Below, piece after piece: positions 1 through 29,644 of a DNA stretch of 64,000 nucleotides. The notes beneath the pieces were generated by a model. It had not been told where the DNA came from. It worked only from the letters and a program-made list of their open reading frames with translations, and made no database searches. The stretch is from positions 1 through 64,000 of IMG/VR virus record IMGVR_UViG_3300023174_004816. The stretch is one strand, 5' to 3'. The translations under genes were made by a program, and so were the position numbers. Position 1 is the first letter of the stretch; the number at the start of each line of letters is the position of its first letter. Source of the stretch: a virus (Duplodnaviria; Heunggongvirae; Uroviricota; Caudoviricetes).

Positions 1-65
1 CGCTCAAGAACAGTTGGATAAATGTGTAAATCTGGCTAAATACTGGCAACTAAAAGGATTCAAAG

Positions 66-1094
66 ATGAAACTGCAAGAATTGGAATCAAGAACCAAAAT
101 ACAACAAAGCCTCAAAGTATTTGAGAGCCATTTTGGACAGACATTGGCCATTGATGCCATGACCCCACAAAAAGCACAGATGATGCTTCGCAAAGTGCGT
201 GGCTTGATCAAAGAGCATCGCTCCACTCCTGAGTTCCATCGTAGCGAACAAAATCCCAACTATCTCAAGTTGATAGTAATGGAACGAGCTCTTGAAGCTC
301 GCATGAAAGAATCACAGCCTGGCGCCGCACCTGGCATGGCCATGGCACAGCAGACTCCTGCACAACAGGCCGCTGCCGCCCAGAACAAACCCATGAATGG
401 CGATCTAGCACGTGGCGTAGCCAAAGTTGCCACAGCCACAGGTCAAGGCGGTCAAGCACAAAAACTTACCAAAGCCATACAAAGCACCATGGCTGGCAAG
501 GCATTGGATGCAGGTAGCAAAGCCGCATTGGCACAGCATGAACTTGGCATTGCCAACATCATGAAAGACCCAGCACAAGCCAACAAACTACAACAGATGT
601 TGAAACAGGCATCTGCTCAAGCCACAGCTGAAAGCCGTGCAAAGAGTGGACGTCGTTTGCGTGAAGCCAGCGAGATTCAACAAGCTCAAGTAGTATTGGC
701 CGCTCAAGACATGGTTGATCAAGTACAGAAAATGATTGAACAAGTGTCAGCCATGCAGTTCAAAGATTTGCCAGCATTGGTAGATTCAATCCGCAATGAT
801 GTTGGTATGGATCAAGCACAACAATTCAACAACGATGTCACAGCCGCACTACAAGGTCTTATCCAGGGCCTCCAGGGCAGTAAAACCCAACTGGAAACCG
901 CACAAGGTGTACTCACAGGTCAAGCCCCAGTGGTGCCCGGACAAGATGCTGGCGCCGCAGGAGCCGCTCCCCTTCCAGGAGCAGATGTACCCGATGTTGA
1001 CACTGGTGAAGAAGAAGTAGACCTTAGCCTAGATGCAAATCTAGACACAGAAGAACTTCCGCCAGCCAAGACACTGGGCCGCGAGCGTAGATAA
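66..1094 (+). CDS. hypothetical Gln/Ala-rich protein, low-complexity central region
   Basis: 342-aa ORF; AQQAAAAQ / QGGQAQ low-complexity stretches and an acidic C-terminus; no recognisable catalytic motif. Confidence 0.45.
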   Translation: MKLQELESRTKIQQSLKVFESHFGQTLAIDAMTPQKAQMMLRKVRGLIKEHRSTPEFHRSEQNPNYLKLIVMERALEARMKESQPGAAPGMAMAQQTPAQQAAAAQNKPMNGDLARGVAKVATATGQGGQAQKLTKAIQSTMAGKALDAGSKAALAQHELGIANIMKDPAQANKLQQMLKQASAQATAESRAKSGRRLREASEIQQAQVVLAAQDMVDQVQKMIEQVSAMQFKDLPALVDSIRNDVGMDQAQQFNNDVTAALQGLIQGLQGSKTQLETAQGVLTGQAPVVPGQDAGAAGAAPLPGADVPDVDTGEEEVDLSLDANLDTEELPPAKTLGRERR

Positions 1095-1095
1095 T

Positions 1096-1434
1096 ATGTT
1101 GATCCGTGAATTCCAGGATCCAGACTCAATGAAACTGGCCGCCATAGGCCAGTTTTTACTCAAACGAGCACAGGACACTGATGCAATCAAACCAATGAGC
1201 GTGGATGCGTTTGTTAAGATTGCACGTGAAAACGGTATCAATATGACAGCAGACCGTTTTCGTTTGCTGGCCAGCCAACAACCTTTGAACAACATAATCG
1301 ACAACGTGCAAGGCGATGAGATTATTTGGAAAGGCACCACTGTTGCTGGAGCCCCGGGAGGCGATAAAATGAGCGTGGATCAAGCTCGTAAAACTGTGAA
1401 CCAAATGGCCAAGCGTGCCATTGATCTCAAGTAA
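1096..1434 (+). CDS. hypothetical protein
   Basis: 112-aa ORF starting 2 nt after the previous stop; no motif recognised. Confidence 0.4.
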   Translation: MLIREFQDPDSMKLAAIGQFLLKRAQDTDAIKPMSVDAFVKIARENGINMTADRFRLLASQQPLNNIIDNVQGDEIIWKGTTVAGAPGGDKMSVDQARKTVNQMAKRAIDLK

Positions 1435-1446
1435 ATACCAAAACGG

Positions 1447-1475
1447 TTGACTCTGTCAACAAAAACCATTATAAT
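1447..1475 (+). promoter_or_regulatory. sigma70-like promoter (cGGTTGACT-17-TATAAT) upstream of iscU
   Basis: TTGACT at 1447-1452, 17-nt spacer, TATAAT at 1470-1475, then a GGAG RBS and ATG at 1494. Confidence 0.55.
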
Positions 1476-1493
1476 AAACGATAGGAGATCGGT

Positions 1494-1883
1494 ATGGCTT
1501 ATTCTGACAAAGTGATTGATCATTATGAAAATCCACGCAACGTGGGCAAACTGGACATAGATGATTCAGTGGGCACAGGCATGGTTGGTGCACCTGCATG
1601 CGGTGATGTAATGAAATTACAAATAAAGGTGGATAATGATACAGGTATTATTACAGACGCTAAATTTAAAACGTATGGCTGCGGCTCGGCGATTGCGAGC
1701 TCAAGCCTTGTCACAGAGTGGGTCAAAGGAAAAACACTCGACGAAGCCGGAGCAATTAAAAACAGTCAAATTGCCGAAGAACTAGCATTACCTCCTGTTA
1801 AAATACATTGCTCCATTCTTGCTGAGGATGCTATCAAGGCGGCCATAGAAGACTATCGTAAAAAACATGATATCAATAACTGA
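1494..1883 (+). CDS. iscU: Fe-S cluster assembly scaffold IscU/NifU-like
   Basis: MAYSDKVIDHYENPRNVG N-terminus, GAPACGDVMKL and CGSAIASS cysteine motifs typical of IscU. Confidence 0.85.
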   Translation: MAYSDKVIDHYENPRNVGKLDIDDSVGTGMVGAPACGDVMKLQIKVDNDTGIITDAKFKTYGCGSAIASSSLVTEWVKGKTLDEAGAIKNSQIAEELALPPVKIHCSILAEDAIKAAIEDYRKKHDINN

Positions 1884-2196
1884 ACTAGCGGCCTGCAAAG
1901 TCAAAGAAAATCTAGCTCGCCGTGGACAGGGTCTTGGTATCAAAATTGGTGTACGCACAACAGGATGTTCAGGGCTTGCGTACACTTTAGAATATGTTGA
2001 TGTTGAACAAGGGCAACAACACTGTGTGGCTCACTATGATGTCAATGGTGTGCGAGTCTATGTCGATCCCAAACATCAACCCTATCTCGAAGGCATGACC
2101 ATGGATTGGGTCCGCAATGGACTCAATGAAGGTTTTGATTTTATTAACCCCAACGAACGTGACCGCTGTGGATGCGGAGAAAGTTTTCGTGTATAA
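1867..2196 (+). CDS. iscA: Fe-S cluster insertion protein IscA/HesB family
   Basis: C-terminal CGCGESF motif plus an upstream conserved Cys (TTGCSG); overlaps the iscU stop. Confidence 0.8.
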   Translation: MISITELAACKVKENLARRGQGLGIKIGVRTTGCSGLAYTLEYVDVEQGQQHCVAHYDVNGVRVYVDPKHQPYLEGMTMDWVRNGLNEGFDFINPNERDRCGCGESFRV

Positions 2197-2902
2197 CCCA
2201 AAATTTGATTACAAACCACTTAGTCGCACCAGCGAAGATGGTAAGCGTTTGTATTTGACACCCGATGGAAAAAAGTTGCCCAGTGTAACTACCATACTTG
2301 AAAAAACCAAGCCTGAAGAAAAGAAACGTGCTTTAAATGAGTGGCGCAATCGTGTGGGTCATGCACAAGCACAGGCCATTACCACTGAAGCTGCCAACCG
2401 CGGTACTAGAATGCACACTTACTTGGAGCACTATGTCAAAACAGGTGAACTCAAAGAACGTGGGTCAAATCCCTACTCGTGGGCCAGTCATGCCATGGCA
2501 GAAACTGTGATTGAGGATGGTCTTAAAAATGTTTCAGAATTCTGGGGCGTAGAAATACCTTTGTATTTCCCCAAACTCTATGCAGGCACCACCGACGGTG
2601 CAGGCATACATTTAAACAACGAAAGTATTCTAGACTACAAGCAAACCAACAAACCCAAGCGTGAAGAATGGATTGAAGATTATTTCTTACAGCTCACTGC
2701 CTATGCTCTAGCACACAACGAAGTCTACGGTACAAACATACGCAAAGGTGTGGTGTTGATGTGTGTAAAACCCGAGGTTGATGCCATGGGCAATCCCACA
2801 ACAGCGCCACAATACCAAGAATTTGTGCTAAAAGAAGCGGATTTTGATCACTGGGAACAACAGTGGTGGAAGCGTCTTGAGCTCTATTACTTGACCAGCT
2901 AA
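2117..2902 (+). CDS. PD-(D/E)XK nuclease superfamily protein (RecB/Cas4/lambda-exo-like); the start may be GTG 2189
   Basis: GTTDGAG...ILDYKQT motif (D...D/E-x-K) and RGTRMH; the ORF overlaps the iscA end, so the start is uncertain. Confidence 0.55.
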   Translation: MDSMKVLILLTPTNVTAVDAEKVFVYNPKFDYKPLSRTSEDGKRLYLTPDGKKLPSVTTILEKTKPEEKKRALNEWRNRVGHAQAQAITTEAANRGTRMHTYLEHYVKTGELKERGSNPYSWASHAMAETVIEDGLKNVSEFWGVEIPLYFPKLYAGTTDGAGIHLNNESILDYKQTNKPKREEWIEDYFLQLTAYALAHNEVYGTNIRKGVVLMCVKPEVDAMGNPTTAPQYQEFVLKEADFDHWEQQWWKRLELYYLTS

Positions 2903-2922
2903 ATATGTGATCGGAGACAAGA

Positions 2923-4782
2923 ATGGCAATAGTACAGATATCACGTATCACCCAGCGTAAAGGACTCAGCGAAAACTTACCGCAGTTAGCGGGTGCAGAG
3001 TTTGGGTGGGTTATAGACGAACGCAGATTGTTCATTGGCAATGGCACCATACAAGAAGGTGCTCCTGCTATTGGCAATACAGAAATCCTCACAGAATATT
3101 CAGATATATTTGCCATTGCTGGTCTCTATACCTACAAAGGTGAAGCTGGTGGCTACACTGTACAAACAGGACCCACAGCTGGAGATCCTGTACAAAGAAC
3201 TCTGCAATCAGTGTTGGATGAAACAGCCAGCGTCAAAGACTTTGGCGCCACTGGTGACGGTGACACAGACGACACAGAAGCCATTAACCGTGCCCTGTAT
3301 CAAATGTTCTGCAGAGAAAATAATCCGCAAGTGCGTCGTAGTTTGTTTTTTCCAGCAGGCATATATCGTGTAACAGATAGTATCAAGATTCCGCCCTACT
3401 GCAAACTCTACGGAGAAGGTGGTGATAGTTCTGTTATCTTTTTAACTGCCGCAGATGATTCCACAGTGGCAACTTATGTGGCGCAGACTGCAGACAGTTT
3501 ACAACAGACTGGTGTGAACATTGGCAACAATGGTGCGGCTACACCACAGAACATTGAAATCTATAACATGGGTTTCCAGAGTAACGAAGAGATTGACTTG
3601 TTCTTGATTGAAGACGCAGAACAAATCAGTTTTCAAGACGTCAGCTTCAATGGCCCGTTTGATCAAAACGACATTGCCAATGCACAAGGTGTGAGCTCTT
3701 TTGACACAGGATCGTTAGTAGGTGGAACCAGTTATGTCAATGCAACCAATGTGGCCACAAGCAACTCAGGATCAGGATTTGGCCTAACAGTAAACATCAC
3801 GGCAGCCGGTGCAGTGACCCTGGTCACTGTAAACAATCCTGGGCAAGGCTATGCAGTGGGAGATGTCATCACTATCTCAGGAGGCAACGACAATGCCACT
3901 ATAGAAGTGTTGTCTACATTCAACAGAATAACCACCGCTGACATTGCCTCGGTACGTTTCGCCAGCACTGTAAGTACAATTACAAATACAGTGACATTTG
4001 ACACTTGTCATTTTACTGGATCAAGTTATGCATTTGATGCCGATGAGCAAATACAAGGTATCACTGTACAAAACTCACGATTTGATACACTATGGCAAGG
4101 TGCCTTGATTGGTGCAGGAACTCCAGTCAACGGTGGCCCTAGTGGATTCCGCTTGTTACACAACTTGTTCGATGCTATCTATCACGAAGGTATCATAATA
4201 GGAGCAGTTCAAAACAACATGTCTGGCTTCAACATCTTCTTGGATGTGGCCACAGATTTCCAAGGTGGAAATCAAACTCCATCTACTCCAATTATCAACA
4301 TCAACGGTGACAACAACGTATCGTTTGGCGACATGTTTGAAAGAGATGAAACGTTTAATCTCGTTGAACCTCGCATTGAAATCAACAATAAAAAAGTATT
4401 TGCTCTTGACAAAGGTGAACGTTATAAGTTTGGAACTTATGGACAGGATGTTGGCAAAGAGGTATACTTGGATCTAACCAACACTCCAATCACAGTCATA
4501 ACTTGGCTTCCAGAACAGGCCGAGGCTTTTACTATGCAATATAAGTTTAGAGACCCATTGAATTTAACTACCAGGTATGGAACCTTACAAGTTGTTGCCG
4601 CTGACGGAGATGATTCTTCAGGCACATTGACTTATACAGATGATTACAGTGAAAACAATCCTACATACCTCACACTTGATGTAGTTCAAGTAGGCGGTGA
4701 GGTAGAGGTACAATATACATTACCATCGGGCAGTGGCGCCAGTGGTGGCACATTAAAGTACTCAATCAGCTATCTAGGATAA
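2923..4782 (+). CDS. tailspike/tail fibre protein with a pectate-lyase-like beta-helix domain
   Basis: VKDFGATGDGDTDDTEAINRAL motif (Pectate_lyase_3-type, common in phage tailspikes); 619 aa, Gly/Thr/Asn-rich repeats. Confidence 0.7.
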   Translation: MAIVQISRITQRKGLSENLPQLAGAEFGWVIDERRLFIGNGTIQEGAPAIGNTEILTEYSDIFAIAGLYTYKGEAGGYTVQTGPTAGDPVQRTLQSVLDETASVKDFGATGDGDTDDTEAINRALYQMFCRENNPQVRRSLFFPAGIYRVTDSIKIPPYCKLYGEGGDSSVIFLTAADDSTVATYVAQTADSLQQTGVNIGNNGAATPQNIEIYNMGFQSNEEIDLFLIEDAEQISFQDVSFNGPFDQNDIANAQGVSSFDTGSLVGGTSYVNATNVATSNSGSGFGLTVNITAAGAVTLVTVNNPGQGYAVGDVITISGGNDNATIEVLSTFNRITTADIASVRFASTVSTITNTVTFDTCHFTGSSYAFDADEQIQGITVQNSRFDTLWQGALIGAGTPVNGGPSGFRLLHNLFDAIYHEGIIIGAVQNNMSGFNIFLDVATDFQGGNQTPSTPIININGDNNVSFGDMFERDETFNLVEPRIEINNKKVFALDKGERYKFGTYGQDVGKEVYLDLTNTPITVITWLPEQAEAFTMQYKFRDPLNLTTRYGTLQVVAADGDDSSGTLTYTDDYSENNPTYLTLDVVQVGGEVEVQYTLPSGSGASGGTLKYSISYLG

Positions 4783-4784
4783 CT

Positions 4785-5216
4785 GTGTGGCCAGACCGGT
4801 ATGAAGACCGGTTATCCCAGTGGCATCAATTGCGGCAGGATAACCAAACCAATAATTTAGAAACAGCATTGTTGACCATCAATGATTGGTGGCAACGTGT
4901 CCCTGTTGTCAATCACTATCTGCATTGGGATGATCTCGAAACTTGGCCAGATCCCTGGGATCTTTTAGCCGATAATCACTTCTGTAATCTTGCAAAAGCC
5001 CTGGGAATAGTGTATACTTTACACATGATTGGTCGAGATGACATAACCGCTGTGGCAATAGCCAACAATGGCGATTCTAACGACAATTTAGTCCTGGTCA
5101 ATGAGGGAAAATATATACTGAATTGGGCTCCTGGCGAATTGTTAAATATCACATCCAAACAAGTAACAATAAAAAGAAGCGTAGATTCACAAGCGGTAAC
5201 AAAGAAAATCAACTGA
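4785..5216 (+). CDS. hypothetical protein
   Basis: 143-aa ORF starting 3 nt after the tailspike stop. Confidence 0.4.
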   Translation: MWPDRYEDRLSQWHQLRQDNQTNNLETALLTINDWWQRVPVVNHYLHWDDLETWPDPWDLLADNHFCNLAKALGIVYTLHMIGRDDITAVAIANNGDSNDNLVLVNEGKYILNWAPGELLNITSKQVTIKRSVDSQAVTKKIN

Positions 5217-5223
5217 GGTAGCG

Positions 5224-7539
5224 ATGACACAGATACAAATTACAAAAAGAGACGGCAACAAAGAGCCGCTGGATTTAGAAAAATTACACAAAGTAGTATT
5301 TTGGGCCACAGAAGGAATAACTGGGGTCTCAGCAAGTCAAGTAGAAATAAAATCACACATACAGTTTTACAATGGAATCAAGACAGCAGACATTCAAGAA
5401 ACATTGATCAAGAGTGCGGCTGATCTTATCACAGAAGAAACACCCAACTATCAATATGTAGCAGGTCGATTGATTTGTTATCATCTACGCAAGCAGGTGT
5501 ATGGTCAATTCCAACCATGGCACATACTTGATCTAGTCAAAAAGAATGTGGACGCTGGCTTTTATGATGCAGAATTACTGGAAGCCTATGACACAGACGA
5601 ATGGGAACGCATTAACTCATTTATCCGCCACGATCGTGACGAACAGTTGACCTATGCTGCCATGGAGCAGTTCCGTGGCAAGTATCTTGTGCAAAATCGT
5701 GTCACCAAAGAAATCTTTGAAACACCACAGATGGCCTATGCGCTAATTGCTGCCACTTTGTTTCAAAACTATCCCAAAGACAGTCGCATGATGTGGGTGC
5801 GTGATTACTATGATGCCATCAGCCAACATCAAGTTTCATTGCCTACTCCTGTGATGGCCGGTGTCCGTACTCCTATGCGACAGTTTTCATCATGTGTATT
5901 GATTGAAACCGATGACAGCCTTGACTCGATCAATGCCACCTCAAGTTCTATTGTCAAGTACGTAAGTCAAAAAGCCGGTATTGGTATTGGCGCTGGTCGT
6001 ATTCGTGCTCTGGGATCACCCATTCGCAATGGTGATGCATACCATACAGGTGTTATTCCTTTTTACAAAATGTTTCAGGCGGCTACCCGCTCGTGTAGCC
6101 AAGGCGGTGTACGCAATGGAGCCGCCACTCTTTATTATCCAATTTGGCATTACGAAGTTGAAGACCTGCTAGTTCTCAAAAACAACAAAGGTACCGAGGA
6201 CAATCGTGTTCGCCACATGGACTACGGTATCCAGTTCAACAAAGTAATGTACGAGCGATTGTTGTCCGGCGGAGATATAACCCTGTTCTCGCCTCATGAT
6301 GTACCCGAGATGTATGAAGCTTTCTTCACTGATGTAGATCGTTTCCGTGAACTGTATGAAACAGCCGAACGAAATACCAAACTCCGTAAGAAGAAAATCA
6401 AAGCCATAGATTTGTTTACTGCATTCATGCAAGAACGCAAAGACACTGGTCGCATTTATCTACAAAACGTTGATCATGCCAACACTCACGGTAGTTTCAA
6501 ACCTGACTTGGCCCCTGTTAAAATGAGCAACCTCTGCTGTGAGATTACTCTGCCAACCAAACCTTTGACTGATGTGCATGATGACAAAGGTGAGATTGCT
6601 CTTTGTACACTCAGTGCAATCAACTGGGGTGTGTTCCGTGATCCAGAAGACATGGAGAAAGCCTGCACGTTGTCTGTGCGTGGTCTGGATGCGTTGTTGA
6701 GTTATCAAAACTATCCCATCATTGCCGCACAGTTGGCCACTGAAGCACGACGTCCGTTGGGTGTTGGTATCATTAACTTTGCCTACTGGTTGGCCAAGAA
6801 CGACTTGAGTTACAGTGATCCGGCGGCCTTGCCCGTGGTTGATCGTTGGGCGCAACACTGGTCATATTACTTGATCAAAGCGTCGGCAGATCTAGCACGT
6901 GAGTTTGGTGCTTGCCCCAAGAGCAATGAAACCAAATATGGTGATGGTATCCTTCCTGTTGACACATACAAACACGAAGTTGATGAACTAGTACCTCACG
7001 TTGATGCTGTAGACTGGGCTGGACTACGTGCTCAGTTAAAACAGCACGGTATTCGCAATTCCACCTTGATGGCGCTAATGCCTGCAGAAACATCAGCGCA
7101 AATTTCAAACTCTACCAACGGAGTAGAACCTCCACGCAGTTATGTTTCAATCAAGCAAAGCAAGGATGGCGTACTCCGACAAGTAGTTCCTGAATATCGT
7201 AGACTTAAAAACAAGTATGAACTGTTGTGGGATCAGAAAACCCCAGAAGGTTATTTGAGAATCATGGCCATTCTCCAGAAGTATATTGACCAGGGCATAT
7301 CCGTAAATACCTCATATAACCCACAGTTCTTTGATGATGAGAAGATACCAATGAGTGAGATGCTCAAGCATGTGATTATGTTTTACAAGTACGGTGGCAA
7401 ACAGCTCTACTACTTTAACACCTACGATGGGTCGGGCGAAATCGATATTGATCGTATGAACAATAAAGAACTAATTATTGAGTCAGTAGACACTAGTTTA
7501 TCCGCAGACGATGCCGACTGCGACAGTTGCAAAATATAA
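5224..7539 (+). CDS. nrdA: ribonucleoside-diphosphate reductase class Ia alpha subunit
   Basis: N-terminal ATP-cone (VTKRDGNKEPLDLEKLHKV); 771 aa; catalytic-region motifs (NLCCEI, PAETSAQ); followed by nrdB. Confidence 0.93.
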   Translation: MTQIQITKRDGNKEPLDLEKLHKVVFWATEGITGVSASQVEIKSHIQFYNGIKTADIQETLIKSAADLITEETPNYQYVAGRLICYHLRKQVYGQFQPWHILDLVKKNVDAGFYDAELLEAYDTDEWERINSFIRHDRDEQLTYAAMEQFRGKYLVQNRVTKEIFETPQMAYALIAATLFQNYPKDSRMMWVRDYYDAISQHQVSLPTPVMAGVRTPMRQFSSCVLIETDDSLDSINATSSSIVKYVSQKAGIGIGAGRIRALGSPIRNGDAYHTGVIPFYKMFQAATRSCSQGGVRNGAATLYYPIWHYEVEDLLVLKNNKGTEDNRVRHMDYGIQFNKVMYERLLSGGDITLFSPHDVPEMYEAFFTDVDRFRELYETAERNTKLRKKKIKAIDLFTAFMQERKDTGRIYLQNVDHANTHGSFKPDLAPVKMSNLCCEITLPTKPLTDVHDDKGEIALCTLSAINWGVFRDPEDMEKACTLSVRGLDALLSYQNYPIIAAQLATEARRPLGVGIINFAYWLAKNDLSYSDPAALPVVDRWAQHWSYYLIKASADLAREFGACPKSNETKYGDGILPVDTYKHEVDELVPHVDAVDWAGLRAQLKQHGIRNSTLMALMPAETSAQISNSTNGVEPPRSYVSIKQSKDGVLRQVVPEYRRLKNKYELLWDQKTPEGYLRIMAILQKYIDQGISVNTSYNPQFFDDEKIPMSEMLKHVIMFYKYGGKQLYYFNTYDGSGEIDIDRMNNKELIIESVDTSLSADDADCDSCKI

Positions 7540-7551
7540 AAGAGAAAAACA

Positions 7552-8679
7552 ATGAGCGTACTTAATCTTCAGAAGAATCGTGACCACACCACCAGCCTGG
7601 CCTTTCTTGACCCCAAAGGCGGGTTAGGCATGCAAAGATATGATACACTAAAGTATCGTCAGTTTGACAAACTCACAGACAAGCAGTTGGGATTTTTTTG
7701 GCGGCCAGAAGAAATAGATGTGCTACGTGATGCCAAAGACTTCAAAGACCTTACACCTTTTGAACAGCATATTTTCACTGCCAATCTCAAGCGTCAGATC
7801 CTGTTGGATTCAGTGCAAGGTCGTAGCCCTAATCTAGCGTTCCTTCCTATTGTTACATTGCCAGAATTAGAAACATGGATCGAAACCTGGGCATTTTCAG
7901 AAACCATTCACAGTCGTTCATACACACATATCATCCGTAATGTATATTCAGATCCTGGCAAGGTATTTGATGAGATGCTGGATGTGGACGACATCATCCA
8001 ATGTGGCAATGACATTTCCAAATACTATGACGACTTGATACAATATAGTCAATGGTATCAATTGTTGGGAGAAGGCCAACATGAGTGCAACGGTAAGAAA
8101 TTTGAAATCTCTGCCTATGAGCTCAAGAAAAAATTGTGGGTGTGTCTTAACAGTGTAAACGTGTTGGAAGGCATACGTTTCTATGTTTCATTTGCATGTT
8201 CATGGGCTTTTGCTGAACTAAAGAAAATGGAAGGCAACGCCAAGATCATCAAATTGATTGCTCGTGATGAGAATGTGCATCTTGGGTTCAGTCAAAGCCT
8301 GCTAAAGATACTGCCGCAGGACGATCCTGATTTTGCTAAAATCAAACAAGAAACAGAATCTGAAGTAGTGACTATGTTTGAGTCAGCTGTGGCGCAGGAA
8401 GAAGCCTGGGCAGACTACTTGTTCAAAGACGGAAGCATGATTGGTCTCAACAAGCAGTTACTCTGCGACTATGTAGAGTGGATTGCTCACAAACGTATGA
8501 CTGCCTTGGGGTTACCCAATAAATATCGCGGTGGATCCAACCCACTGCCGTGGACACAGAAATGGATTGCCGGCGGCGATGTACAAGTAGCACCACAAGA
8601 AACAGAAATCACCAGCTATGTCATAGGTGGTACCAAACAAGACGTAGATTCAAATACATTTACAGGAATGAGTTTATAG
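7552..8679 (+). CDS. nrdB: ribonucleoside-diphosphate reductase beta subunit
   Basis: 375 aa; ferritin-like di-iron motifs (EGIRFY, ARDENVH); immediately downstream of nrdA. Confidence 0.92.
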   Translation: MSVLNLQKNRDHTTSLAFLDPKGGLGMQRYDTLKYRQFDKLTDKQLGFFWRPEEIDVLRDAKDFKDLTPFEQHIFTANLKRQILLDSVQGRSPNLAFLPIVTLPELETWIETWAFSETIHSRSYTHIIRNVYSDPGKVFDEMLDVDDIIQCGNDISKYYDDLIQYSQWYQLLGEGQHECNGKKFEISAYELKKKLWVCLNSVNVLEGIRFYVSFACSWAFAELKKMEGNAKIIKLIARDENVHLGFSQSLLKILPQDDPDFAKIKQETESEVVTMFESAVAQEEAWADYLFKDGSMIGLNKQLLCDYVEWIAHKRMTALGLPNKYRGGSNPLPWTQKWIAGGDVQVAPQETEITSYVIGGTKQDVDSNTFTGMSL

Positions 8680-9891
8680 ATGAAAAAACGGAATTATACA
8701 CAAGAGGATGTAAAAAAGTTACAAGGCAGTTTAAAAATAGAATACACATTGGCCCGACGTGGCGCTACAAAACTACGTGAATTGTTGGCCACAGAACCAT
8801 TTGTTCCTACACTGGGTGCATACAATGGACAGCAGGCAGTACAACATGCCAAAGCTGGACTCAAAGCAATTTATCTATCAGGATGGCAAGTAGCGGCAGC
8901 TGCCAACACAGCAGGCCGTGTGTATCCAGACCAAAGTCTATATCCAGTTGACTCAGTTCCGTCTGTTGTTAAAGAAATCAACAATGCGCTTCGCCGTGCA
9001 GATCAAATACAAACTTTGGAAGGTGTTGGCAACACAGATTATTATCTACCTATCATCGCCGACTGTGAAGCAGGCTTTGGAGGTGCGCTAAACGCATACG
9101 AATTAACCTTGAGCTGTATTGAAGCAGGTGCGGCCGCTGTACACTTTGAAGATCAATTGAGTTCGGAAAAGAAGTGTGGTCACCTGGGAGGCAAAGTGCT
9201 GATTCCCACACGACAAGCCATACGAAATCTAAATGCCGCAAGACTGGCCGCTGATGTATCAGGAGTAGACACAGTGATCCTGGCACGTACAGATGCAGAA
9301 TCTGCCACACTGATCACATCAGACATAGACCCAATTGATCAACCATTTGTTAATTATTACAAAAACCGTACACCAGAAGGATTCTGGCATTTTAACAATG
9401 GCTTGGATGCGTGTATCGCTCGTGGTCTTGCTTATGCTGAATACGCAGACTTGCTATGGTTTGAAACATCAACTCCGGACTTAGAGCAAGCACAAAAGTT
9501 TGCCGATGCCATACATGCCAAGTTTCCAGATCAAATGTTGGCTTACAACTGTTCGCCCAGTTTTAACTGGCGCAAGTATCTCACTGAAGATGAGTGCGAA
9601 ACTTTCCAAGCCAAGATTGGCGCCATGGGTTACAAGTACCAATTCATTACCTTGGCTGGCTTTCATTGCAACAACTTGGCCACCTTTGAAATGGCCGAAG
9701 CCTATCAGAAAACAGGCATGCGTGGTTACAGTGAAATGCAACAACGTGAATTTGCCGCACAAGAGCGTGGCTTTACCACAGTCAAACATCAGCGTGAAGC
9801 AGGTGTTCCATACTTTGATGCCATTGCCACAGCGGTAGGTGCCACCAGCACAACAGCACTTGAGCACTCAACAGAAGCGGATCAATTCTAA
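8680..9891 (+). CDS. aceA: isocitrate lyase
   Basis: Exact ICL signature KKCGHLGGK; C-terminal [11 protein letters not shown]...[12 protein letters not shown] and STEADQF strongly resemble E. coli AceA. Confidence 0.88.
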
Positions 9892-10556
9892 TGCTTGAAA
9901 CCTGTTGCGATATCCTTGTAGATGCATACAAGCGTAACTGGATTACCAGTCGTGATGGAAATATTTCTATACGTCATCACGACCGTGATCACTTTTACAT
10001 TACTCCCAGTGGTGTACGTAAACAAACCATGCAACCAGATCAGTTTAAAAAAATTCTGATCAAACCACCTAATTCTTGGAACGAACTAGGTACTGGTCTA
10101 TTAGCTGATCGGTGGGGATGGAAAGAGTTGCCTTACAGTGATATCAGTTCCAATCTAAAACCCAGCGGAGAACTTCCTCTGCACTTTGGTTTACAAAAAC
10201 AAATGGGACAACATCGCGGAGAAGTACGAGTGGTAGTGCATGTACATCCTACCTACTGTATCGCTGCCATGCATGCTGGAATAGACTTAAGCACTGTCAG
10301 TAACGCCTTTCCAGAGCTTAATCGCTACACTCGAGTGGCACCCAATGTTGGAGATGTTCCGCCAATCAGTCAAGAGCTGGCTGATCAGTGTCACAAAAAC
10401 CTACAGCTAGACAATGAAGGTAACATTGCCTATGACATAGTGGGCATCAAAGGGCACGGTGTTGTGGCCATTGACACAACTCCCTGGCGAGCCTATGAAC
10501 ACATAGAACGCTTAGAACACATTTGCAAGATTGTACTTGCTTCAGGAAAATATTAA
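9891..10556 (+). CDS. class II aldolase/adducin-like protein (putative)
   Basis: VVVHVHPTY resembles the zinc-binding HxH motif of class II aldolases and epimerases; start overlaps the aceA stop (TAATG). Confidence 0.4.
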   Translation: MLETCCDILVDAYKRNWITSRDGNISIRHHDRDHFYITPSGVRKQTMQPDQFKKILIKPPNSWNELGTGLLADRWGWKELPYSDISSNLKPSGELPLHFGLQKQMGQHRGEVRVVVHVHPTYCIAAMHAGIDLSTVSNAFPELNRYTRVAPNVGDVPPISQELADQCHKNLQLDNEGNIAYDIVGIKGHGVVAIDTTPWRAYEHIERLEHICKIVLASGKY

Positions 10557-10557
10557 C

Positions 10558-10827
10558 ATGCTTACAGTATATTCAAAAAAACATTGTCCATTTTGCGATC
10601 GAGCCAAGGCATTGTTGACTAACAAAAATATCGCGTTTGAAGAAATCAAAATAGACGAGAATGAAAATGCTCGAGAGTTTATCATGGAGCAAGGGCATCG
10701 CACAGTTCCGCAGATTTATCATCAAGGCAAATTATTTGTTGAAGGTGGGTTCCAAGGTTTAAGTAAGCTGAGCACAGACGAGATTCGTACTCGTATGGGC
10801 CTTACTGATAACCTAGGAACCTTATGA
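10558..10827 (+). CDS. glutaredoxin (NrdH/Grx-like, CPFC active site)
   Basis: KKHCPFCDRAKALL active site; the ORF track starts at 10531, but ATG 10558 with an upstream AGGAAAA lies just after the previous stop. Confidence 0.8.
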   Translation: MLTVYSKKHCPFCDRAKALLTNKNIAFEEIKIDENENAREFIMEQGHRTVPQIYHQGKLFVEGGFQGLSKLSTDEIRTRMGLTDNLGTL

Positions 10828-11129
10828 ATCATTTAACACCCGGTGAAATTTACACTTTTAAACTTGTCAGCGGCGAGGAAATTACCGCTAAAATCTTCAA
10901 AAATACTGACGGTATTTTTGAAGTAACTCAACCCATCAGCATGGTGTTGGGCCCTCAAGGGCTACAAATGATGCCCAGCTTGTTCAGCTCAAATCCCGAA
11001 AAAAATGTCTATATAAATACTGTTAATATTGCCATGGCGGCAGAAACTCGCGAAGATGTGCGAGCCAAGTACATCGAAGCCACTACTGGAATCGTTACTC
11101 CGCCTGCCAAGCAAATTATAACAGGTTAG
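10824..11129 (+). CDS. hypothetical protein
   Basis: 101-aa ORF, ATGA overlap with the glutaredoxin stop. Confidence 0.4.
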   Translation: MNHLTPGEIYTFKLVSGEEITAKIFKNTDGIFEVTQPISMVLGPQGLQMMPSLFSSNPEKNVYINTVNIAMAAETREDVRAKYIEATTGIVTPPAKQIITG

Positions 11130-11133
11130 TACA

Positions 11134-11349
11134 ATGGCTCACAGGTTTGTGGTCAAGAAGGACAATGAAATACTAGAATTTCAACGGTATGAAGATATAC
11201 CTGATGAATTTGATCATTTGTTGGGGTTTCTACCAGAAATTCCTCCTCCACCACACACCGACGAGCAACATGAAGAAATAGAATCTTGGATATCCAAGTT
11301 TAACAGATTGATGGAGATAGAACATGCCAGCACAAGCAAGAGTAGGTGA
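11134..11349 (+). CDS. hypothetical acidic protein
   Basis: 71-aa ORF; no motif. Confidence 0.35.
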   Translation: MAHRFVVKKDNEILEFQRYEDIPDEFDHLLGFLPEIPPPPHTDEQHEEIESWISKFNRLMEIEHASTSKSR

Positions 11350-11614
11350 TCCAGGAATTCCACATTGCAGTCCTTATGTGATAGCGACTGGGTCATTAGA
11401 TGTAATAGTCAACGGCAAGCCCGCGGCCTACCTGGGATCCTTGTCTACACCCCATTTGATCCCTGCTGGAAAATTTTGTGTTACTCATGTAGCACCAGTG
11501 GTGTTTGGCAGCACGTCTGTTATAATCAACGGCAAGCCTGCGGCCAGAGTTGGGGACCCGTTGGGTACCTGTACAGCTATTGCTCTAGGCAGTTTTGACG
11601 TGGTCACAGGATAA
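11324..11614 (+). CDS. PAAR-repeat protein (spike-tip, T4 gp5.4/T6SS PAAR-like)
   Basis: Repeated ARVGDP...C motifs (AQARVGDPGIPHC, AARVGDPLGTC) and VIVNGKPAA repeats; GGAG RBS before ATG 11324. Confidence 0.8.
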   Translation: MPAQARVGDPGIPHCSPYVIATGSLDVIVNGKPAAYLGSLSTPHLIPAGKFCVTHVAPVVFGSTSVIINGKPAARVGDPLGTCTAIALGSFDVVTG

Positions 11615-11620
11615 AGTTTC

Positions 11621-13855
11621 ATGGCGTGTAGTGGTGCTATAACTTCCATAGTAATGACCGCGGCAGGATCATTTATTGCCAACGGCGGTCTCACTGAAGT
11701 GTTTGGTGCAGAACCTTTTAGTTCTCTTGCTGGCGCCACTGGAGACCTAGTATCGGTGGCTGGTGATGCCACCATGATGTGTACTGCTGAAACAGTGGGT
11801 GCCATTACAGAAACTGTTGGCCAGAGTTGGTATCAATCTCTTGGGACTACATTGTCTTCAATGAAAGATTCTGTGTTGGAATTCACAGCTGGCATGAAGG
11901 ATGCGTGGAATCAAATTGCCACTGCGCCAGCTGCCGCTGGAAAAGAAATTTTCAACGCCACTCAAGGTACCTGGGGACCACAGACAGCACAGTTTCTGCA
12001 AACTGTGACCACTAACACTTTTCAAACAGCTCTTGACATGGGTCTAAGCACAGTTGGTACCACGCTGGGTGGCAGTGGTCAACTTGTTGCTGGAGTCATG
12101 CAAGGAGATCCTAGAGTTCTTGGACAGATAATTCCTGGCGCATCGAGCTATGTTAATCTAGCAAACTCCTTTATCAATGCATCTAAAAAAGGTGGCACCC
12201 TTGACAAAACTTTTCAAAGCCTTGACAACACCATCACTGCCGGAGTCGATGGTGTAAGCAACTGGTTCAAAGGATTGGGAACTGATACAGCCAAATTAGG
12301 CGACACTGTGAGTTGGGAAAATTTATCAAACCTAGGCAGTCCTGGACAACTTGTTGCCAACATGGAAAACAACGGCACACTGGGTCCATTGTATGACAAG
12401 ATGAAAAACATAACTCTCAGCGAAAAAGACGCACAACAGCTGGGTTACAATGTAGTTACATCTGTGTACGGTGTAGCCACTGGCAGTAAGAATTCAGTGG
12501 GCGTGTTTGATTTAAGCAGAGGTATTACCTTGGGATCTTTGGGAGTTGATCTAAACACTGTGGCACGACAAGGTGCCAACCTTCCATCAGGAGTACAGAG
12601 ACAAATATATGATGTTCTGGGAACACTTAACACCACAGAAGTAGCACAGGTCAAAGGCATCTTAAATAACACTCAATCAGCAATAACCAAAGGCACTGAT
12701 TTATTAAATCCACAAAAACTGTTTGCATCAAGTTATACCACACTCACCACTCCAATTCGCACTGCCAGCCCCGGATGGAGAGCTATCTATGAAAATGAAT
12801 CCGGCAGTGTAAATCCAGAACTCGATCAGCTAGGCGACAATCTCAAAGGTATTATTCCTGATGATCTTGCAGTGGCCAATGCCGCAGTTGCTAGAAGTTT
12901 TGGTCAGATCAAAGGCATACAAGGCAGTAACTCCGCCACACTGGGTGCTACCATTGCCAGTTTAGAAAATCTCAGAGGTTTGCCAGACTTAGAAAATCAA
13001 AGTCAATATGTCACTGACGGTGTAAAACAATTTTGGCAAGATTACTATGGCAATGATTACAACATCAAACTTGGTACAGGAAACTTTGACACCTTGGTAT
13101 TGTCGGATGTCATAGGCTTTGCGGCAGGATACAACAGCGCATTTCCGATCAAAGAAAGCGCACCCTTATTGGATTCATTAAACAGTGCAGGAGCTCTCGA
13201 TGCATTTACCTTTGACGACCCACTGGCTTCGCCAAATCCCATCTACGGAATTTACACAGTGATTCAAAACTTCTGTGCAGGTGCTTACACTGCCGAGGAT
13301 CCAATGATGCCAGGTGATTGGTACACAACTATACCTCCAGGATCAGCAGCCGCTGGTGTATATGGGCCGTTTGCCACAGAGGAAGAGGCATTTGAAGACG
13401 CATGGCTCAATGGCATAATACCTTACACCGCAGTGGCCAGTGCTGACATCTATGAAAACAATCCTGAAGCTCAGACAGTCAATGCCAATGACAGTGTTTG
13501 GCAAGATCAATACGGTAGAGAGTATCTAAATCGTCAACGCATGGACCTTGTGGTCGGAGACATTCGCCCCAGCGATCAAACTGCCATCAGCTTTGCACAA
13601 TCATTGGCCACTTATGGTACAGAAACTGATTTTGGCGGACCAGCGATGTGGCTAGAACGTACGATAGATGTCAGCAGTCTTGGCGGACAATCAGTGATTG
13701 CGGCCATGCGTGAAGGTCGTAATGCCAGCAAATTGTCAGCTATTGGATTGCAAACAGATGCGCCTCTCAGCACTGCTGGACTGGAATATCCTGGCGATCT
13801 AACTCCTAACCAATACGACAAAGACGAGGCCAACGCCTTGGTAATTCGTACTTAA
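11621..13855 (+). CDS. large hypothetical protein downstream of PAAR (possible tail-associated or ejected protein)
   Basis: 744 aa, Gly/Thr/Ser-rich N-terminal half; begins 7 nt after the PAAR stop. Confidence 0.5.
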   Translation: MACSGAITSIVMTAAGSFIANGGLTEVFGAEPFSSLAGATGDLVSVAGDATMMCTAETVGAITETVGQSWYQSLGTTLSSMKDSVLEFTAGMKDAWNQIATAPAAAGKEIFNATQGTWGPQTAQFLQTVTTNTFQTALDMGLSTVGTTLGGSGQLVAGVMQGDPRVLGQIIPGASSYVNLANSFINASKKGGTLDKTFQSLDNTITAGVDGVSNWFKGLGTDTAKLGDTVSWENLSNLGSPGQLVANMENNGTLGPLYDKMKNITLSEKDAQQLGYNVVTSVYGVATGSKNSVGVFDLSRGITLGSLGVDLNTVARQGANLPSGVQRQIYDVLGTLNTTEVAQVKGILNNTQSAITKGTDLLNPQKLFASSYTTLTTPIRTASPGWRAIYENESGSVNPELDQLGDNLKGIIPDDLAVANAAVARSFGQIKGIQGSNSATLGATIASLENLRGLPDLENQSQYVTDGVKQFWQDYYGNDYNIKLGTGNFDTLVLSDVIGFAAGYNSAFPIKESAPLLDSLNSAGALDAFTFDDPLASPNPIYGIYTVIQNFCAGAYTAEDPMMPGDWYTTIPPGSAAAGVYGPFATEEEAFEDAWLNGIIPYTAVASADIYENNPEAQTVNANDSVWQDQYGREYLNRQRMDLVVGDIRPSDQTAISFAQSLATYGTETDFGGPAMWLERTIDVSSLGGQSVIAAMREGRNASKLSAIGLQTDAPLSTAGLEYPGDLTPNQYDKDEANALVIRT

Positions 13856-13856
13856 T

Positions 13857-13926
13857 ACTAAGTTAGTACACACTAACCTCTGTGTTTATGGGCGGTTGAC
13901 ACGAAATGAATCTTTCTTTATAATAG
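13857..13926 (+). promoter_or_regulatory. palindrome (TTAGTacacACTAA) plus sigma70-like promoter GGCGGTTGACA-17-TATAAT (repeated cassette, copy 1)
   Basis: TTGACA at 13896-13901, TATAAT at 13919-13924; followed by the conserved cATACAGTTAaAAAAGGAG leader. Confidence 0.6.
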
Positions 13927-13953
13927 TTGCATACAGTTAAAAAAGGAGCTGGT

Positions 13954-14229
13954 ATGCGCCGCAAGACTATTATAGACGGTTTCCGCAACGGACAGAAATT
14001 CCGTGTTATTTTCCGCAATGGTGGCAGTGAGTACGACATTGGTATGTATATGACCATCCAGCAAATGACAGACAACATGGCCACAGTTCAAGCAAGAACC
14101 GCTGTATGGGATGCCATGTCAAAGTTGGCCAATATGCGTTATTTTGCTCAAGTCAACAAAGAGCCCATGCCAGTGGGACTGGTTTGTGACTCTTCAGGTT
14201 TTCAAGTACAGGTGGACCTATGCGACTAG
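13954..14229 (+). CDS. hypothetical protein
   Basis: ORF track starts at alternative TTG 13927, which lies inside the promoter; ATG 13954 is preceded by AAAGGAG. Confidence 0.5.
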   Translation: MRRKTIIDGFRNGQKFRVIFRNGGSEYDIGMYMTIQQMTDNMATVQARTAVWDAMSKLANMRYFAQVNKEPMPVGLVCDSSGFQVQVDLCD

Positions 14230-14399
14230 ATCCGTTGGGTGTGAGTTTGATAATCACTCTACAACCTGAAGATGTAGAGACCTTGCAACTCATTCAAGAA
14301 CGACATAGTCGCGATGACCACACAGGTATTATCGCTCACATTTTATCACAGTACGAAATGAAGGTCGACTCCGGCCTAAATACAAAGGTACAGGCATGA
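14220..14399 (+). CDS. small hypothetical protein (59 aa), translationally coupled on both sides
   Basis: ATG 14220 overlaps the upstream stop, and its own TGA overlaps the ligase ATG (ATGA); not in the ORF track because it is under 60 aa. Confidence 0.35.
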   Translation: MRLDPLGVSLIITLQPEDVETLQLIQERHSRDDHTGIIAHILSQYEMKVDSGLNTKVQA

Positions 14400-15769
14400 C
14401 TCAGGCTCGCAATTGGCAAAGTGAAGAATATAATGGACTCAACGTGGCAGTAGATTGGATCGAAGATCTCGAAGGCAACGACTCTAGGCTACACAAAGAA
14501 GCAGTGATCGAAAAGGCTCTAGTGGCGGCTCGTCTGGGCTCAGCAGGTGCTCAATGTTTTTTATACAACTGTTACCTGGCCTACAATCCTTATTTCGTCT
14601 ATGGTGTAAAGAAAGTTCCTGAGACCAAGGACCTCACAGGGAAAGATAATCCCTGGGTAGAGTTTTGGGCACTCACAGAAGCTCTCCGAACTCGTAGCAT
14701 CACTGGCAACCGGGCACGTGATAAAATAGAAGAGCTGGCCGGTCGTTTTGACTCTGACGAGTGGAACGGTTTGGCCCGCCGGGTACTGATCAAAGATCTA
14801 CGCTGTGGCATATCAGAAAAAACTTTAAACAAGGTGCTAGGCAACTCAGAATGGAAGATTCCTGTGTTTACTTGTCAGCTGGCCACAGACTCTAACGATC
14901 ATCAAAGCAAACTCAAAGGTCGAAAGCGCATTGAGTGTAAACTGGATGGTGTGCGTGTGTTGGCTGTGGTAACTAAAAGTCATGTAAACTTGTACAGCCG
15001 CAATGGCAAGCCTTTTGACAACTTTCCTCAGGTGGCCGAAGCCATTGAATCATTCCGCAATAAAATGAGTCTCACTACCAAAGGGCCGTTTGTATTGGAT
15101 GGCGAGATTGTGGGAGAAAGTTTTCAAGAACTTATGAAGCAGGCACAGCGTAAAAGTGATGCCAAAACCGAAGGCATGACTTATTATGTGTTTGATATCA
15201 TACCTATCACAGACTTTGAACGTGGGTTTTGGAACGCCCAACAATATAAGCGTACACAAATGCTAGAAGAACATCGTGCTGTGATAGATGCCAGTGATTG
15301 TGTGCGTGTGATGCCAGGCTTGGATGTGGATTTGGATACCGGTGAAGGACATGACATCATGCGGCGCTTTGCTGAAGATGCTGTGGCACAAGGCTATGAA
15401 GGCATTATGATCAAAGACGTGGGTGCTCCTTATGAGTGTAAGCGTAGCAGTTTTTGGATGAAGTGGAAACCCACTATCACAGTGGATTTGAATATTGTTG
15501 GTTTCGAACAAGGCACCGGTCGTAACCAGGATCGTTTGGGTGCGTTAATTTGCGAAGGAGTTGACAATGGACGTGATATCCGTGTTAATGTTGGTAGCGG
15601 TTTGTCTGATAGCAATCGTGATGAGTATTGGAACGCCAGGAATGACCTTGTTGGTCGAGTGGTTGAAATCCAAGCTGATGCGGTAACACAAAATCAGGAC
15701 GGTACCTACAGTCTCCGCTTTCCTAGGTTCGTTCGATTCCGTGGGTGGGAAGCAGGAGAAAAAATATGA
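14396..15769 (+). CDS. ATP-dependent DNA ligase (compact phage/viral type)
   Basis: KxDGxR adenylation motif (ECKLDGVRVLAV); 457 aa. Confidence 0.88.
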   Translation: MTQARNWQSEEYNGLNVAVDWIEDLEGNDSRLHKEAVIEKALVAARLGSAGAQCFLYNCYLAYNPYFVYGVKKVPETKDLTGKDNPWVEFWALTEALRTRSITGNRARDKIEELAGRFDSDEWNGLARRVLIKDLRCGISEKTLNKVLGNSEWKIPVFTCQLATDSNDHQSKLKGRKRIECKLDGVRVLAVVTKSHVNLYSRNGKPFDNFPQVAEAIESFRNKMSLTTKGPFVLDGEIVGESFQELMKQAQRKSDAKTEGMTYYVFDIIPITDFERGFWNAQQYKRTQMLEEHRAVIDASDCVRVMPGLDVDLDTGEGHDIMRRFAEDAVAQGYEGIMIKDVGAPYECKRSSFWMKWKPTITVDLNIVGFEQGTGRNQDRLGALICEGVDNGRDIRVNVGSGLSDSNRDEYWNARNDLVGRVVEIQADAVTQNQDGTYSLRFPRFVRFRGWEAGEKI

Positions 15770-24319: not shown

Positions 24320-24769
24320 ATGAAAAATATAATAATTGCGGCGCTGGGCATCGCAATAATGCCTGTTGTTGCTGTTTCTGCACCACTGCCAGACTTTAGT
24401 TTTAAAAGTCCTGCTTTTAACGGAGTAGGTTATAGCAGTCACGTCCTCACAATCGAGAATCAAGAAGCCACACGTCGTAAAGCTCTTGAAGACAAAATAC
24501 AATCTGCCATAGACAAAGCGGCTGCTGATGCTAAAAATACAAATCTGGCAAAGTTTTTAAACAATCTAGAAAGTCGTATCTATGCTCAGATCTCGCAGAA
24601 CTTGGCCACGGCTATGTTTACTGCTGGAACTTCAACGTCGGGTTCGTTTAACTTTGAAGGCAACGTAATAGAGTGGACCAAAGACAGCACCAGTGTTTAT
24701 CTCACAGTGAGAGACACAGTGGGCAATACCACACAGATCACAGTGCCATTGGGACAGTTTACTTTCTAA
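24320..24769 (+). CDS. csgF: curli assembly protein CsgF-like
   Basis: Signal peptide then FSFKSPAFNGVGY (cf. CsgF FQFRNPNFGGNPNNG) and C-terminal QITVPLGQFTF (cf. TIQVSGLQNNSTDF); AGGAG RBS. Confidence 0.6.
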   Translation: MKNIIIAALGIAIMPVVAVSAPLPDFSFKSPAFNGVGYSSHVLTIENQEATRRKALEDKIQSAIDKAAADAKNTNLAKFLNNLESRIYAQISQNLATAMFTAGTSTSGSFNFEGNVIEWTKDSTSVYLTVRDTVGNTTQITVPLGQFTF

Positions 24770-24770
24770 T

Positions 24771-26015: not shown

Positions 26016-26149
26016 AATGCTGTCGCTTAATAAAACAGCAATAACGATTAAATATTTAAGTAGCATCAGCCTCATGCAGTTTAAGGAGGTAAAATAATTA
26101 TAAGGTCAAAAAGACCAGGGAGCTGGGACAGGGAAATATAAACCCGTCC

Positions 26150-26971: not shown

Positions 26972-26980
26972 GAGGGAACA

Positions 26981-28851: not shown

Positions 28852-28928
28852 CTCAGTGTTTATTTTGTTGAGAAAACACTTTAAATACTTTACATGAAGT
28901 AACGTCTAGAGCTAGACTAACATAATGT

Positions 28929-29639: not shown

Positions 29640-29644
29640 TTTAA

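Follow-up and report, generated by a model that had tools for sequence, protein, structure and literature searches.

An isocitrate lyase of a phage-specific lineage encoded in a variable ribonucleotide reductase block of a putative large tailed phage

Isocitrate lyase (ICL) genes in phages are not a new idea, since phage aceA has already been published from ocean viromes and from huge phages (PMC4053976; PMC5332604; bioRxiv 10.1101/2025.02.27.640493). Both aceA and aceB of phages were noted in ocean viromes in 2013. In huge phages, 98 ICL and 22 malate synthase genes have been reported, and the huge phages encoding malate synthase came only from marine, soil and plant-related samples and not from freshwater (bioRxiv 10.1101/2025.02.27.640493). 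We examined a 64,000-nucleotide stretch of the IMG/VR virus record IMGVR_UViG_3300023174_004816 (positions 1 to 64,000, referred to here as the window), in which a first-pass annotation made from the sequence alone had assigned the open reading frame (ORF) at 8680 to 9891 to ICL and the following gene to a class II aldolase-like protein (ALD) and had proposed both as auxiliary metabolic genes.

Bacterial AceA proteins (EC 4.1.3.1), as represented by the structures 7cmx and 6lrp, Mycobacterium tuberculosis (Mtb) ICL1 and Salmonella AceA, can be aligned with the window ICL over 400 residues at ∼59 to 68% identity, and their catalytic and Mg-binding motifs and C-terminal lid sequence are all present in the phage protein. 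The phage ICL differs from them in lacking ∼21 N-terminal residues, in being encoded outside an aceBAK operon and in its location in a phage block of ribonucleotide reductase (RNR) genes. The ICLs of huge phages and the ICL of the phage contig LR796233.1 resemble the window copy in being solo enzymes without malate synthase, as is found in freshwater huge phages; the report on huge phages makes no mention of a location in an RNR block, phage-specific monophyly, N-terminal truncation or an aldolase (bioRxiv 10.1101/2025.02.27.640493). Viral aceB-aceA operons (TARA_ERS478052_N000008, PMC5332604, and 26 IMG/VR contigs detected in this analysis) also carry a virus-encoded ICL but pair it with malate synthase A, which completes the shunt, whereas the lineage of the window ICL is solo.

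The identity of the window ICL was examined with family models, solved structures and individual catalytic residues. The product passed the cut-offs of the aceA equivalog model NF011645 of NCBIfam (665.8 bits, E = 2.5e-200; cut-off, 562), of TIGR01346 (533.8 bits; cut-off, 275.9) and of Pfam PF00463 (342.6 bits, E = 5e-102; cut-off, 26), the last of these being the family search that the first-pass annotation had proposed as a check. The closest solved structures were bacterial ICLs, namely, 7cmx (E = 1e-164) followed by 6lrp and Mtb ICL1, with residues 4 to 403 being aligned. The signature KKCGHLGGK, which had been read from the product at the outset, was located exactly at residues 164 to 172, where C166 corresponds to the catalytic Cys (Mtb Cys191), and the end of the ORF resembled bacterial AceA, as had also been claimed. 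Equivalents of Mtb Asp108, Asp153, Glu155, His180, Glu182, Cys191, His193 and Arg228 were detected as D84, D128, E130, H155, E157, C166, H168 and R203, and those of Glu285, Asn313, Ser315, Ser317 and Thr347 as E262, N290, S292, S294 and T324. Apart from Asp108, Glu182, Cys191 and Arg228, these Mtb residues are presumed by us, from the Mtb structure, to act in catalysis, Mg binding or substrate binding. The core catalytic roles of the four named residues have been described (PMC7609661). Other branches of the superfamily were considered and rejected, with the prpB models for methylisocitrate lyase giving 106.8 bits against a cut-off of 354.4 and 86.8 bits against 353, the CPEP mutase model giving 45.4 bits against 420 and that for phosphonopyruvate hydrolase giving 19.2 bits against 374. 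Placement in the PEP mutase or methylisocitrate lyase branch, or a mutated Cys/His loop, had been named in the first-pass annotation as observations that would speak against an ICL; neither was found, because the prpB and PEP mutase-type cut-offs were missed and the loop and the remaining catalytic motifs were intact. These results indicated that the ORF encodes a bona fide AceA-type ICL with a complete set of catalytic motifs.

Relatives of this protein were collected from IMG/VR as 190 pattern matches, 187 of which were confirmed and 80 of which were kept for analyses of loci and sequences. The kept relatives were 66 to 94% identical to the window ICL, and several of the contigs carrying such relatives, among them IMGVR_UViG_3300017917_003143, were 340 to 374 kb in length. 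When 185,579 bacterial and archaeal species were scanned, each represented by a single genome, the best cellular identity was 67 to 68%, and the top cellular matches were from Alphaproteobacteria (for example, Oleisolibacter, Niveispirillum and Devosia). A neighbor-joining tree was constructed from 25 phage ICLs and 81 cellular sequences (the 80 closest plus Salmonella AceA). All 30 bootstraps recovered the phage ICLs as a monophyletic group, and their sister group was alphaproteobacterial. All phage ICLs start with MKKR(N/D)Y and lack the ∼21 N-terminal residues of Salmonella AceA; only three or four residues precede the point at which most cellular ICLs carry ∼20 to 30, and the full-length AceA architecture was therefore absent. 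The KKCGHLGGK loop was present in all 82 of the phage ICL copies, as were seven catalytic motifs, with the eighth being present in 81 of 82. The phage alignment contained 179 invariant columns out of 403, and pairwise dN/dS values were between 0.02 and 0.06, which points to strong purifying selection on a phage-specific lineage. Taken together, the monophyly, the common truncation, the conservation of motifs and the low dN/dS values indicated that the gene is functional and has long been resident in phages and that it is not a recent capture from a host.

The GenBank phage set contained one genuine phage with a relative of this ICL. This was C48C1, a complete 156-kb phage of the Kyanoviridae (OQ984149.1), in which positions 44175 to 45416 encode a member of the phage clade, included in the tree, with 62% identity and the same N-terminal truncation. 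A NifU-like gene is located upstream of the C48C1 ICL and a peroxiredoxin gene downstream; the ICL itself is annotated as a hypothetical protein in GenBank. Seven of the nine protein matches in this set were dismissed as bacterial contigs or unannotated fragments with a bacterial-type ICL or PrpB (Salmonella, Acinetobacter), and an eighth was an additional hit, to prpB, from an assembly already counted among these. Comparison of the window with its closest relative (L002) detected nucleotide identities of 93% for nrdA, 90% for nrdB and 87% for ALD, and the ICL genes were less alike than any of these (81% identity, dS of ∼1.4), a difference that hints at an exchange of ICL alleles among related phages.

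A search for malate synthase elsewhere in the genome had been suggested in the first-pass annotation, and tblastn with AceB of Salmonella and GlcB of E. coli as queries detected none in either the 64-kb window or the related phage loci, which totaled 2.0 Mb. Pfam scans of those window ORFs of at least 100 amino acids that were judged to be real genes likewise revealed neither a malate synthase nor an obvious user of glyoxylate. Neither malate synthase nor AceK was present near the ICL gene, which lies outside any aceBAK operon, and a complete glyoxylate shunt, consisting of ICL and malate synthase A or G on the same element, was not found within the 64 kb. A scan of IMG/VR for GlcB also gave no match, although this is a weak negative since the scan relied on 8-mers identical to those of E. 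coli GlcB and had a low sensitivity. Malate synthase A was detected in 26 IMG/VR contigs (L243 to L268), 24 of which had an adjacent ICL in the order aceB-aceA. As the ICLs of these aceB-aceA contigs were only 56 to 64% identical to the window ICL, they form a second, independent viral lineage, which matches the published Tara aceBA virus.

In the window, the gene order is nrdA, nrdB, ICL, ALD and glutaredoxin (grx), followed by a 101-amino-acid ORF, a 71-amino-acid ORF, a PAAR gene, a 744-amino-acid ORF and a DNA ligase gene. The distribution of the two metabolic genes across comparable loci was examined by sampling 80 ICL-anchored and 80 ALD-anchored loci from IMG/VR, where ALD was found in at least 599 stretches and was thus at least three times as common as ICL (190 pattern matches). 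The ICL-anchored loci contained nrdA or nrdB in 46 cases, with ICL located between nrdA and nrdB in 30 and after nrdB in 13, and ALD was present in 16. The association with RNR genes was closer for ALD, as 73 of the ALD-anchored loci contained nrdA or nrdB, 58 had ALD between these two genes and only 6 contained ICL. Hence, ICL occurred without ALD in 64 of 80 loci and ALD without ICL in 74 of 80. Three states of the same junction were observed among relatives whose NrdA, where captured, was at least 93% identical to that of the window: nrdB-ICL-ALD-grx (the window and L002 to L004), nrdB-ICL-grx (L005) and nrdB-ALD-grx (L085 to L088 and L106). The nrdA-to-grx interval of relatives also contained recurrent inserts, with IscA-like genes in 12 loci, a PGDYG protein in 11, IscU (NifU_N) in 10, Fe/Mn superoxide dismutase (SOD) in 9, a GIY-YIG SegE-like endonuclease in 4 and a Tim44-like gene in 3. 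Overall, the nrdA-nrdB-grx block is a variable cargo region in these relatives, and ICL and ALD are separate cargo genes of this one block. An obligate two-enzyme pathway of ICL and ALD was excluded, since each gene is present or absent alone even among near-identical phages.

The ALD protein met the gathering score of Pfam PF00596 (95.6 bits, E = 4e-27; gathering score, 22.2) and reached no NCBIfam equivalog cut-off, the best being 48.7 bits against 137 for MtnB over the N-terminal part only. The equivalog cut-offs for FucA, RhaD, AraD, MtnB, OtnC and ribulose-1-phosphate aldolase were reached by none of 51 diverse members of the ALD family. Among 1.84 billion cluster representatives searched exhaustively, only 608 relatives were detected at an E value of ≤1e-3, which marks ALD as a member of a small, divergent subfamily. 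This orphan subfamily is mostly viral or metagenomic. An AlphaFold (AF2) model with a pLDDT of 91.7 was compared with known structures by Foldseek, which returned FucA, YgbL, DrdA, RhaD, AraD and MtnB at 13 to 20% identity with a TM score of ∼0.7 and a probability of 1.0; a profile search against PDB sequences gave, in rank order, Aquifex aq_1979, FucA, DrdA, a Thermotoga aldolase and human MtnB. The metal site of the class, a Glu and three His residues, is predicted at E94, H117, H119 (the HxH motif) and H189. These four residues, together with D22, G23, N24, S40, G41, K44, S92, G93, H98 and G190, were unchanged in all 81 viral ALD copies.

ALD shares its fold, its metal site and the N24, S40-G41 and S92-G93 positions with FucA, DrdA (5-deoxyribulose-1-phosphate aldolase, 6btd), MtnB (4m6r; aq_1979, 2irp) and YgbL/OtnC, and we take these three positions to be counterparts of the motifs that bind the substrate phosphate in FucA. 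It differs from these enzymes in its low identity, in a ∼30-residue insertion at positions 55 to 85, in the lack of a FucA-type C-terminal tail and in the typical location of its subfamily between nrdA and nrdB. Comparison of the fold and the conserved residues with FucA makes it most likely that ALD is metal dependent and that its substrate is a ketose 1-phosphate, of the kind represented by the 1-phosphates of fuculose, 5-deoxyribulose and methylthioribulose, and not glyoxylate or succinate. To our knowledge, no member of PF00596 uses glyoxylate or succinate. A further phage enzyme of the PF00596 type that has been proposed as a metabolic gene is cyanophage ald2, for which a dihydroxyacetone phosphate (DHAP) shunt was suggested (PMC12801897); its genome context and phage group are different, and the likeness is one of description and not of compared sequences.

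These observations led us to favor, with moderate confidence, a reading in which an intact phage-lineage ICL located beside RNR genes splits isocitrate in the infected cell and ALD is separate cargo encoding a ketose 1-phosphate enzyme. The ICL would be expressed together with the nucleotide-metabolism (RNR) genes and would cleave isocitrate to succinate and glyoxylate, diverting carbon from the two steps of the tricarboxylic acid (TCA) cycle that produce CO2 and NAD(P)H. Since no phage-encoded malate synthase was apparent, the glyoxylate would be left to host enzymes, which could be malate synthase or ones that reduce, transaminate or oxidize it. An ICL could be useful without a dedicated malate synthase, since in Acinetobacter aceA matters during growth on acetate and under H2O2 stress and glcB is dispensable (PMC11069385; PMC6779741). 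The phage would probably gain, in some combination, an anaplerotic supply for biosynthesis and relief from the respiratory load of iron and reactive oxygen species (ROS). An iron or redox benefit may be at least as plausible as a saving of carbon, because the cargo located at the same site in relatives has an iron/redox character.

A stronger form of this last suggestion is that the ICL belongs to an RNR-centered iron/redox module with IscU, IscA, SOD and grx, in which it would reduce NADH, the need of respiration for iron, and ROS or would supply glyoxylate as a peroxide scavenger, with protection of the di-iron radical RNR as the outcome and carbon conservation being secondary. The recurrence of IscA-like, IscU and Fe/Mn SOD genes in the nrdA-grx interval is in keeping with such a module, as are the IscU-like and IscA-like genes upstream of the RNR genes in the window and the NifU-like and peroxiredoxin genes on either side of the C48C1 ICL. 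The glyoxylate shunt of bacteria is, in addition, induced by iron limitation and H2O2, the link to iron limitation possibly being due to a bypass of the iron-rich Complex I (PMC11069385; PMC6779741). However, the same interval holds unrelated genes (PGDYG, Tim44-like and GIY-YIG endonucleases), as would be expected of a general hot spot for insertions, and ICL is also found away from RNR genes, so that this explanation is possible but doubtful. Extended to the whole clade of big phages, the proposal would make nrdA-nrdB-grx a swappable support module for a di-iron reductase, with ICL serving iron/redox economy and ALD having an undescribed role linked to RNR or nucleotides; we regard this extension as unlikely. 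If it were true, the module would hold IscU, IscA, Fe/Mn SOD, a solo ICL and an orphan ALD, and the ICL would act through less NADH, less ROS or glyoxylate as a peroxide sink and not through carbon conservation.

Several points weigh against the favored reading, in which ICL acts beside and with the RNR genes. The ICL gene was also detected outside RNR contexts, with a fatty-acid desaturase gene following it in L017 and L027, and its association with RNR genes is thus frequent but not obligatory. A different neighborhood was likewise observed in LR796233.1, where the AceA gene adjoins genes for two TctC and one DctP binding proteins and lysis genes (L269, 347238 to 368449); homologues of these TctC and DctP proteins were absent from the window and from the other loci. 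DnaJ and ClpB-like genes are present downstream in LR796233.1, and the neighborhood as a whole takes in positions 1 to 5342 and 8633 to 10004 of the locus. A generic hot spot for insertions, shuffled by homing endonucleases, would account for the RNR block equally well. The missing N-terminal segment could alter the oligomerization or regulation of the ICL. A malate synthase gene could lie beyond the visible 64 kb, given that the contig measures 147.5 kb and related contigs 340 to 374 kb. Evidence for an operon from a consensus scan of positions 4500 to 14500 was weak, as promoter and terminator predictions were not above the frequency in shuffled sequences and the sole perfect sigma-70 consensus (TTGACA, 17 nucleotides, TATAAT) was located just past the 744-amino-acid ORF, where the next transcription unit may begin. 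Lastly, ICL and ALD were directly adjacent in 11 of the 16 loci in which they co-occurred, including a context without RNR genes (L025 to L033), which leaves room for some functional or cassette link and for occasional transfer of the two genes as a pair.

The adjacency of ICL and ALD also bears on the first-pass proposal that ALD is coupled to ICL and acts on the glyoxylate or succinate branch. As a two-step phage pathway, this would involve translational coupling of the two genes, with ALD consuming the glyoxylate or succinate made by ICL. The overlap of the ICL stop with the ALD start by one base would be compatible with coupling, and the order in adjacent pairs was always ICL and then ALD, whether in the loci without RNR genes or in the arrangement nrdA-ICL-ALD-nrdB (L060 and L125). 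The separate occurrence of each gene in most loci, the presence of either gene alone at one junction in near-identical phages (L005 versus L085 to L088) and the tracking of nrdA and nrdB by ALD are hard to reconcile with such a pathway, and the FucA-like phosphate-binding residues and nearest solved folds point to a ketose-phosphate substrate. The proposed coupling was thus not supported, and a two-step pathway is improbable.

A main role of the ICL as a 2-methylisocitrate lyase that detoxifies intermediates derived from propionyl coenzyme A, or a dual role like that of Mtb ICL1, was also considered. Bifunctional enzymes with ICL and methylisocitrate lyase activities exist among AceA-type proteins, and the window ICL shares the PEP mutase/ICL superfamily with PrpB and gives weak prpB matches. 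Roles in the methylcitrate cycle are noted in PMC7609661. However, the product passed the aceA equivalog cut-offs and fell far short of those for prpB, and Pfam scans of the window revealed no gene of the methylcitrate cycle, which makes this role very improbable.

The viral origin of the locus was assessed from its surroundings. The window ICL is located on a 147.5-kb metagenome contig, and matches to PHROG virion-structural, tail-spike and neck-appendage families were detected near it, together with a PAAR protein and a phage-type ATP-dependent DNA ligase. The genes of the window are tightly packed and mainly on the plus strand, and most of the other ORFs have no known relatives. A 92% identical protein annotated as AceA is encoded by LR796233.1, a 369.6-kb sequence deposited as an uncultured Caudovirales phage. 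A nucleotide search with the window as the query gave no match among GenBank phages. None of the genes identified in the 64 kb encoded a capsid protein or a terminase, and neither a scan for tRNAs in the window nor a literature search on phage C48C1 pointed to a host. Derivation of the window from a large uncultured tailed phage is supported by these data. The converse view, that the window is cellular DNA or a mis-binned assembly and the ICL simply a host gene, draws on the typically cellular nature of ICL and on the bacterial contigs (Salmonella, Acinetobacter) behind several "phage" database entries that match it but is extremely improbable, given that no cellular ICL among the 185,579 species scanned exceeded 68% identity while viral copies reached 94%, that the flanks carry the structural and tail matches, PAAR, phage-type ligase and mostly relative-less ORFs described above and that synteny is common to IMG/VR contigs and LR796233.1. 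The PHROG structural matches, the IMG/VR relatives, LR796233.1 and the complete phage C48C1 also make the initial description of ICL as a virus-encoded metabolic gene a reasonable one.

The features of the locus and of the remainder of the window are listed in the table.

Table. Positions of the ICL gene, its neighbors and other features of the 64-kb window, with examples of cargo loci from IMG/VR
Feature	Position	Strand	Evidence or remark
IscU-like (NifU_N) and IscA-like (Fe-S_biosyn) genes	1494-2196	+	3 kb upstream of nrdA
nrdA, RNR large subunit	5224-7539	+	Pfam ATP-cone, Ribonuc_red_lgN, Ribonuc_red_lgC; start of conserved block
nrdB, RNR small subunit	7552-8679	+	Pfam Ribonuc_red_sm
ICL, AceA-type, 403 amino acids	8680-9891	+	Profile matches, motifs, PDB match
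ALD, class II aldolase/adducin-fold protein, 221 amino acids	9891-10556	+	PF00596, predicted fold
grx, glutaredoxin	10558-10827	+	PF00462, 69 bits; closes block
PAAR-motif protein (96 amino acids), then directly the 744-amino-acid protein	11324-13855		744-amino-acid protein without Pfam or PHROG match
Perfect sigma-70 consensus	13896-13924		Consensus scan
AAA+ ATPase	19931-21130		PHROG matches annotated ATP-dependent protease
CsgF	24320-24769		Curli-like cluster
CsgG and SH3 domain	24771-26015		Curli-like cluster
Curlin-repeat protein	26150-26971		Curli-like cluster; weak match
FecR-domain protein	26981-28108		Curli-like cluster
TerC	28950-29639	-	After curli-like cluster
CHASE2 sensor-adenylate/guanylate cyclase fusion	29815-31899		After curli-like cluster
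UDP-glucose dehydrogenase-like protein	37486-38781		
Radical SAM protein	52562-53851		
Example cargo locus, L118 (IMG/VR)	1514-1840		Position in L118
Example cargo locus, L111 (IMG/VR)	1101-1493		Position in L111
Example cargo locus, L126 (IMG/VR)	6049-6651		Position in L126
Example cargo locus, L013 (IMG/VR)	7171-7941		Position in L013

The overlap of ALD with the ICL stop, which was correctly described in the first-pass annotation, consists of one shared base in the junction TTC TAATG CTT, the ATG of ALD using the final A of the ICL TAA stop. The neighboring junctions are equally tight, with the TAG stop of nrdB directly abutting the ATG of ICL and the ATG of grx lying 1 nucleotide past the ALD stop, and the one-base overlap thus reflects tight gene packing along the whole RNR block. 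From 7552 to 9891, nrdB and ICL share a reading frame with a single TAG (8677 to 8679) between them, such that readthrough would fuse both proteins; this shared frame is probably a coincidence. The PAAR and 744-amino-acid pair is kept after grx in close relatives of the window, and distant loci often retain one member of the pair or a weak partial match.

Elsewhere in the window, a curli-like secretion cluster and the genes after it occupy the region from 24320 to 31899, and a CHASE2-cyclase gene is also located near ICL in L017. Proteostasis and stress functions are represented by two ClpP proteins, ClpS, Hsp20 and the AAA+ ATPase listed in the table. A Pfam scan of pooled ORFs further detected UvdE, a fatty-acid desaturase and a Band 7 protein.

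Carriage of an ICL by phages indicates that a viral genome can redirect host metabolism at the TCA branch point. Members of the phage ICL lineage come from at least two phage groups that differ greatly, and the window copy is a well-supported added member. ALD should be read as an uncharacterized viral subfamily tied to RNR genes and not as a partner in a glyoxylate pathway. Together with this orphan subfamily, the variable RNR block with its iron/redox cargo is the less expected outcome of the analysis and would be the unit worth studying.

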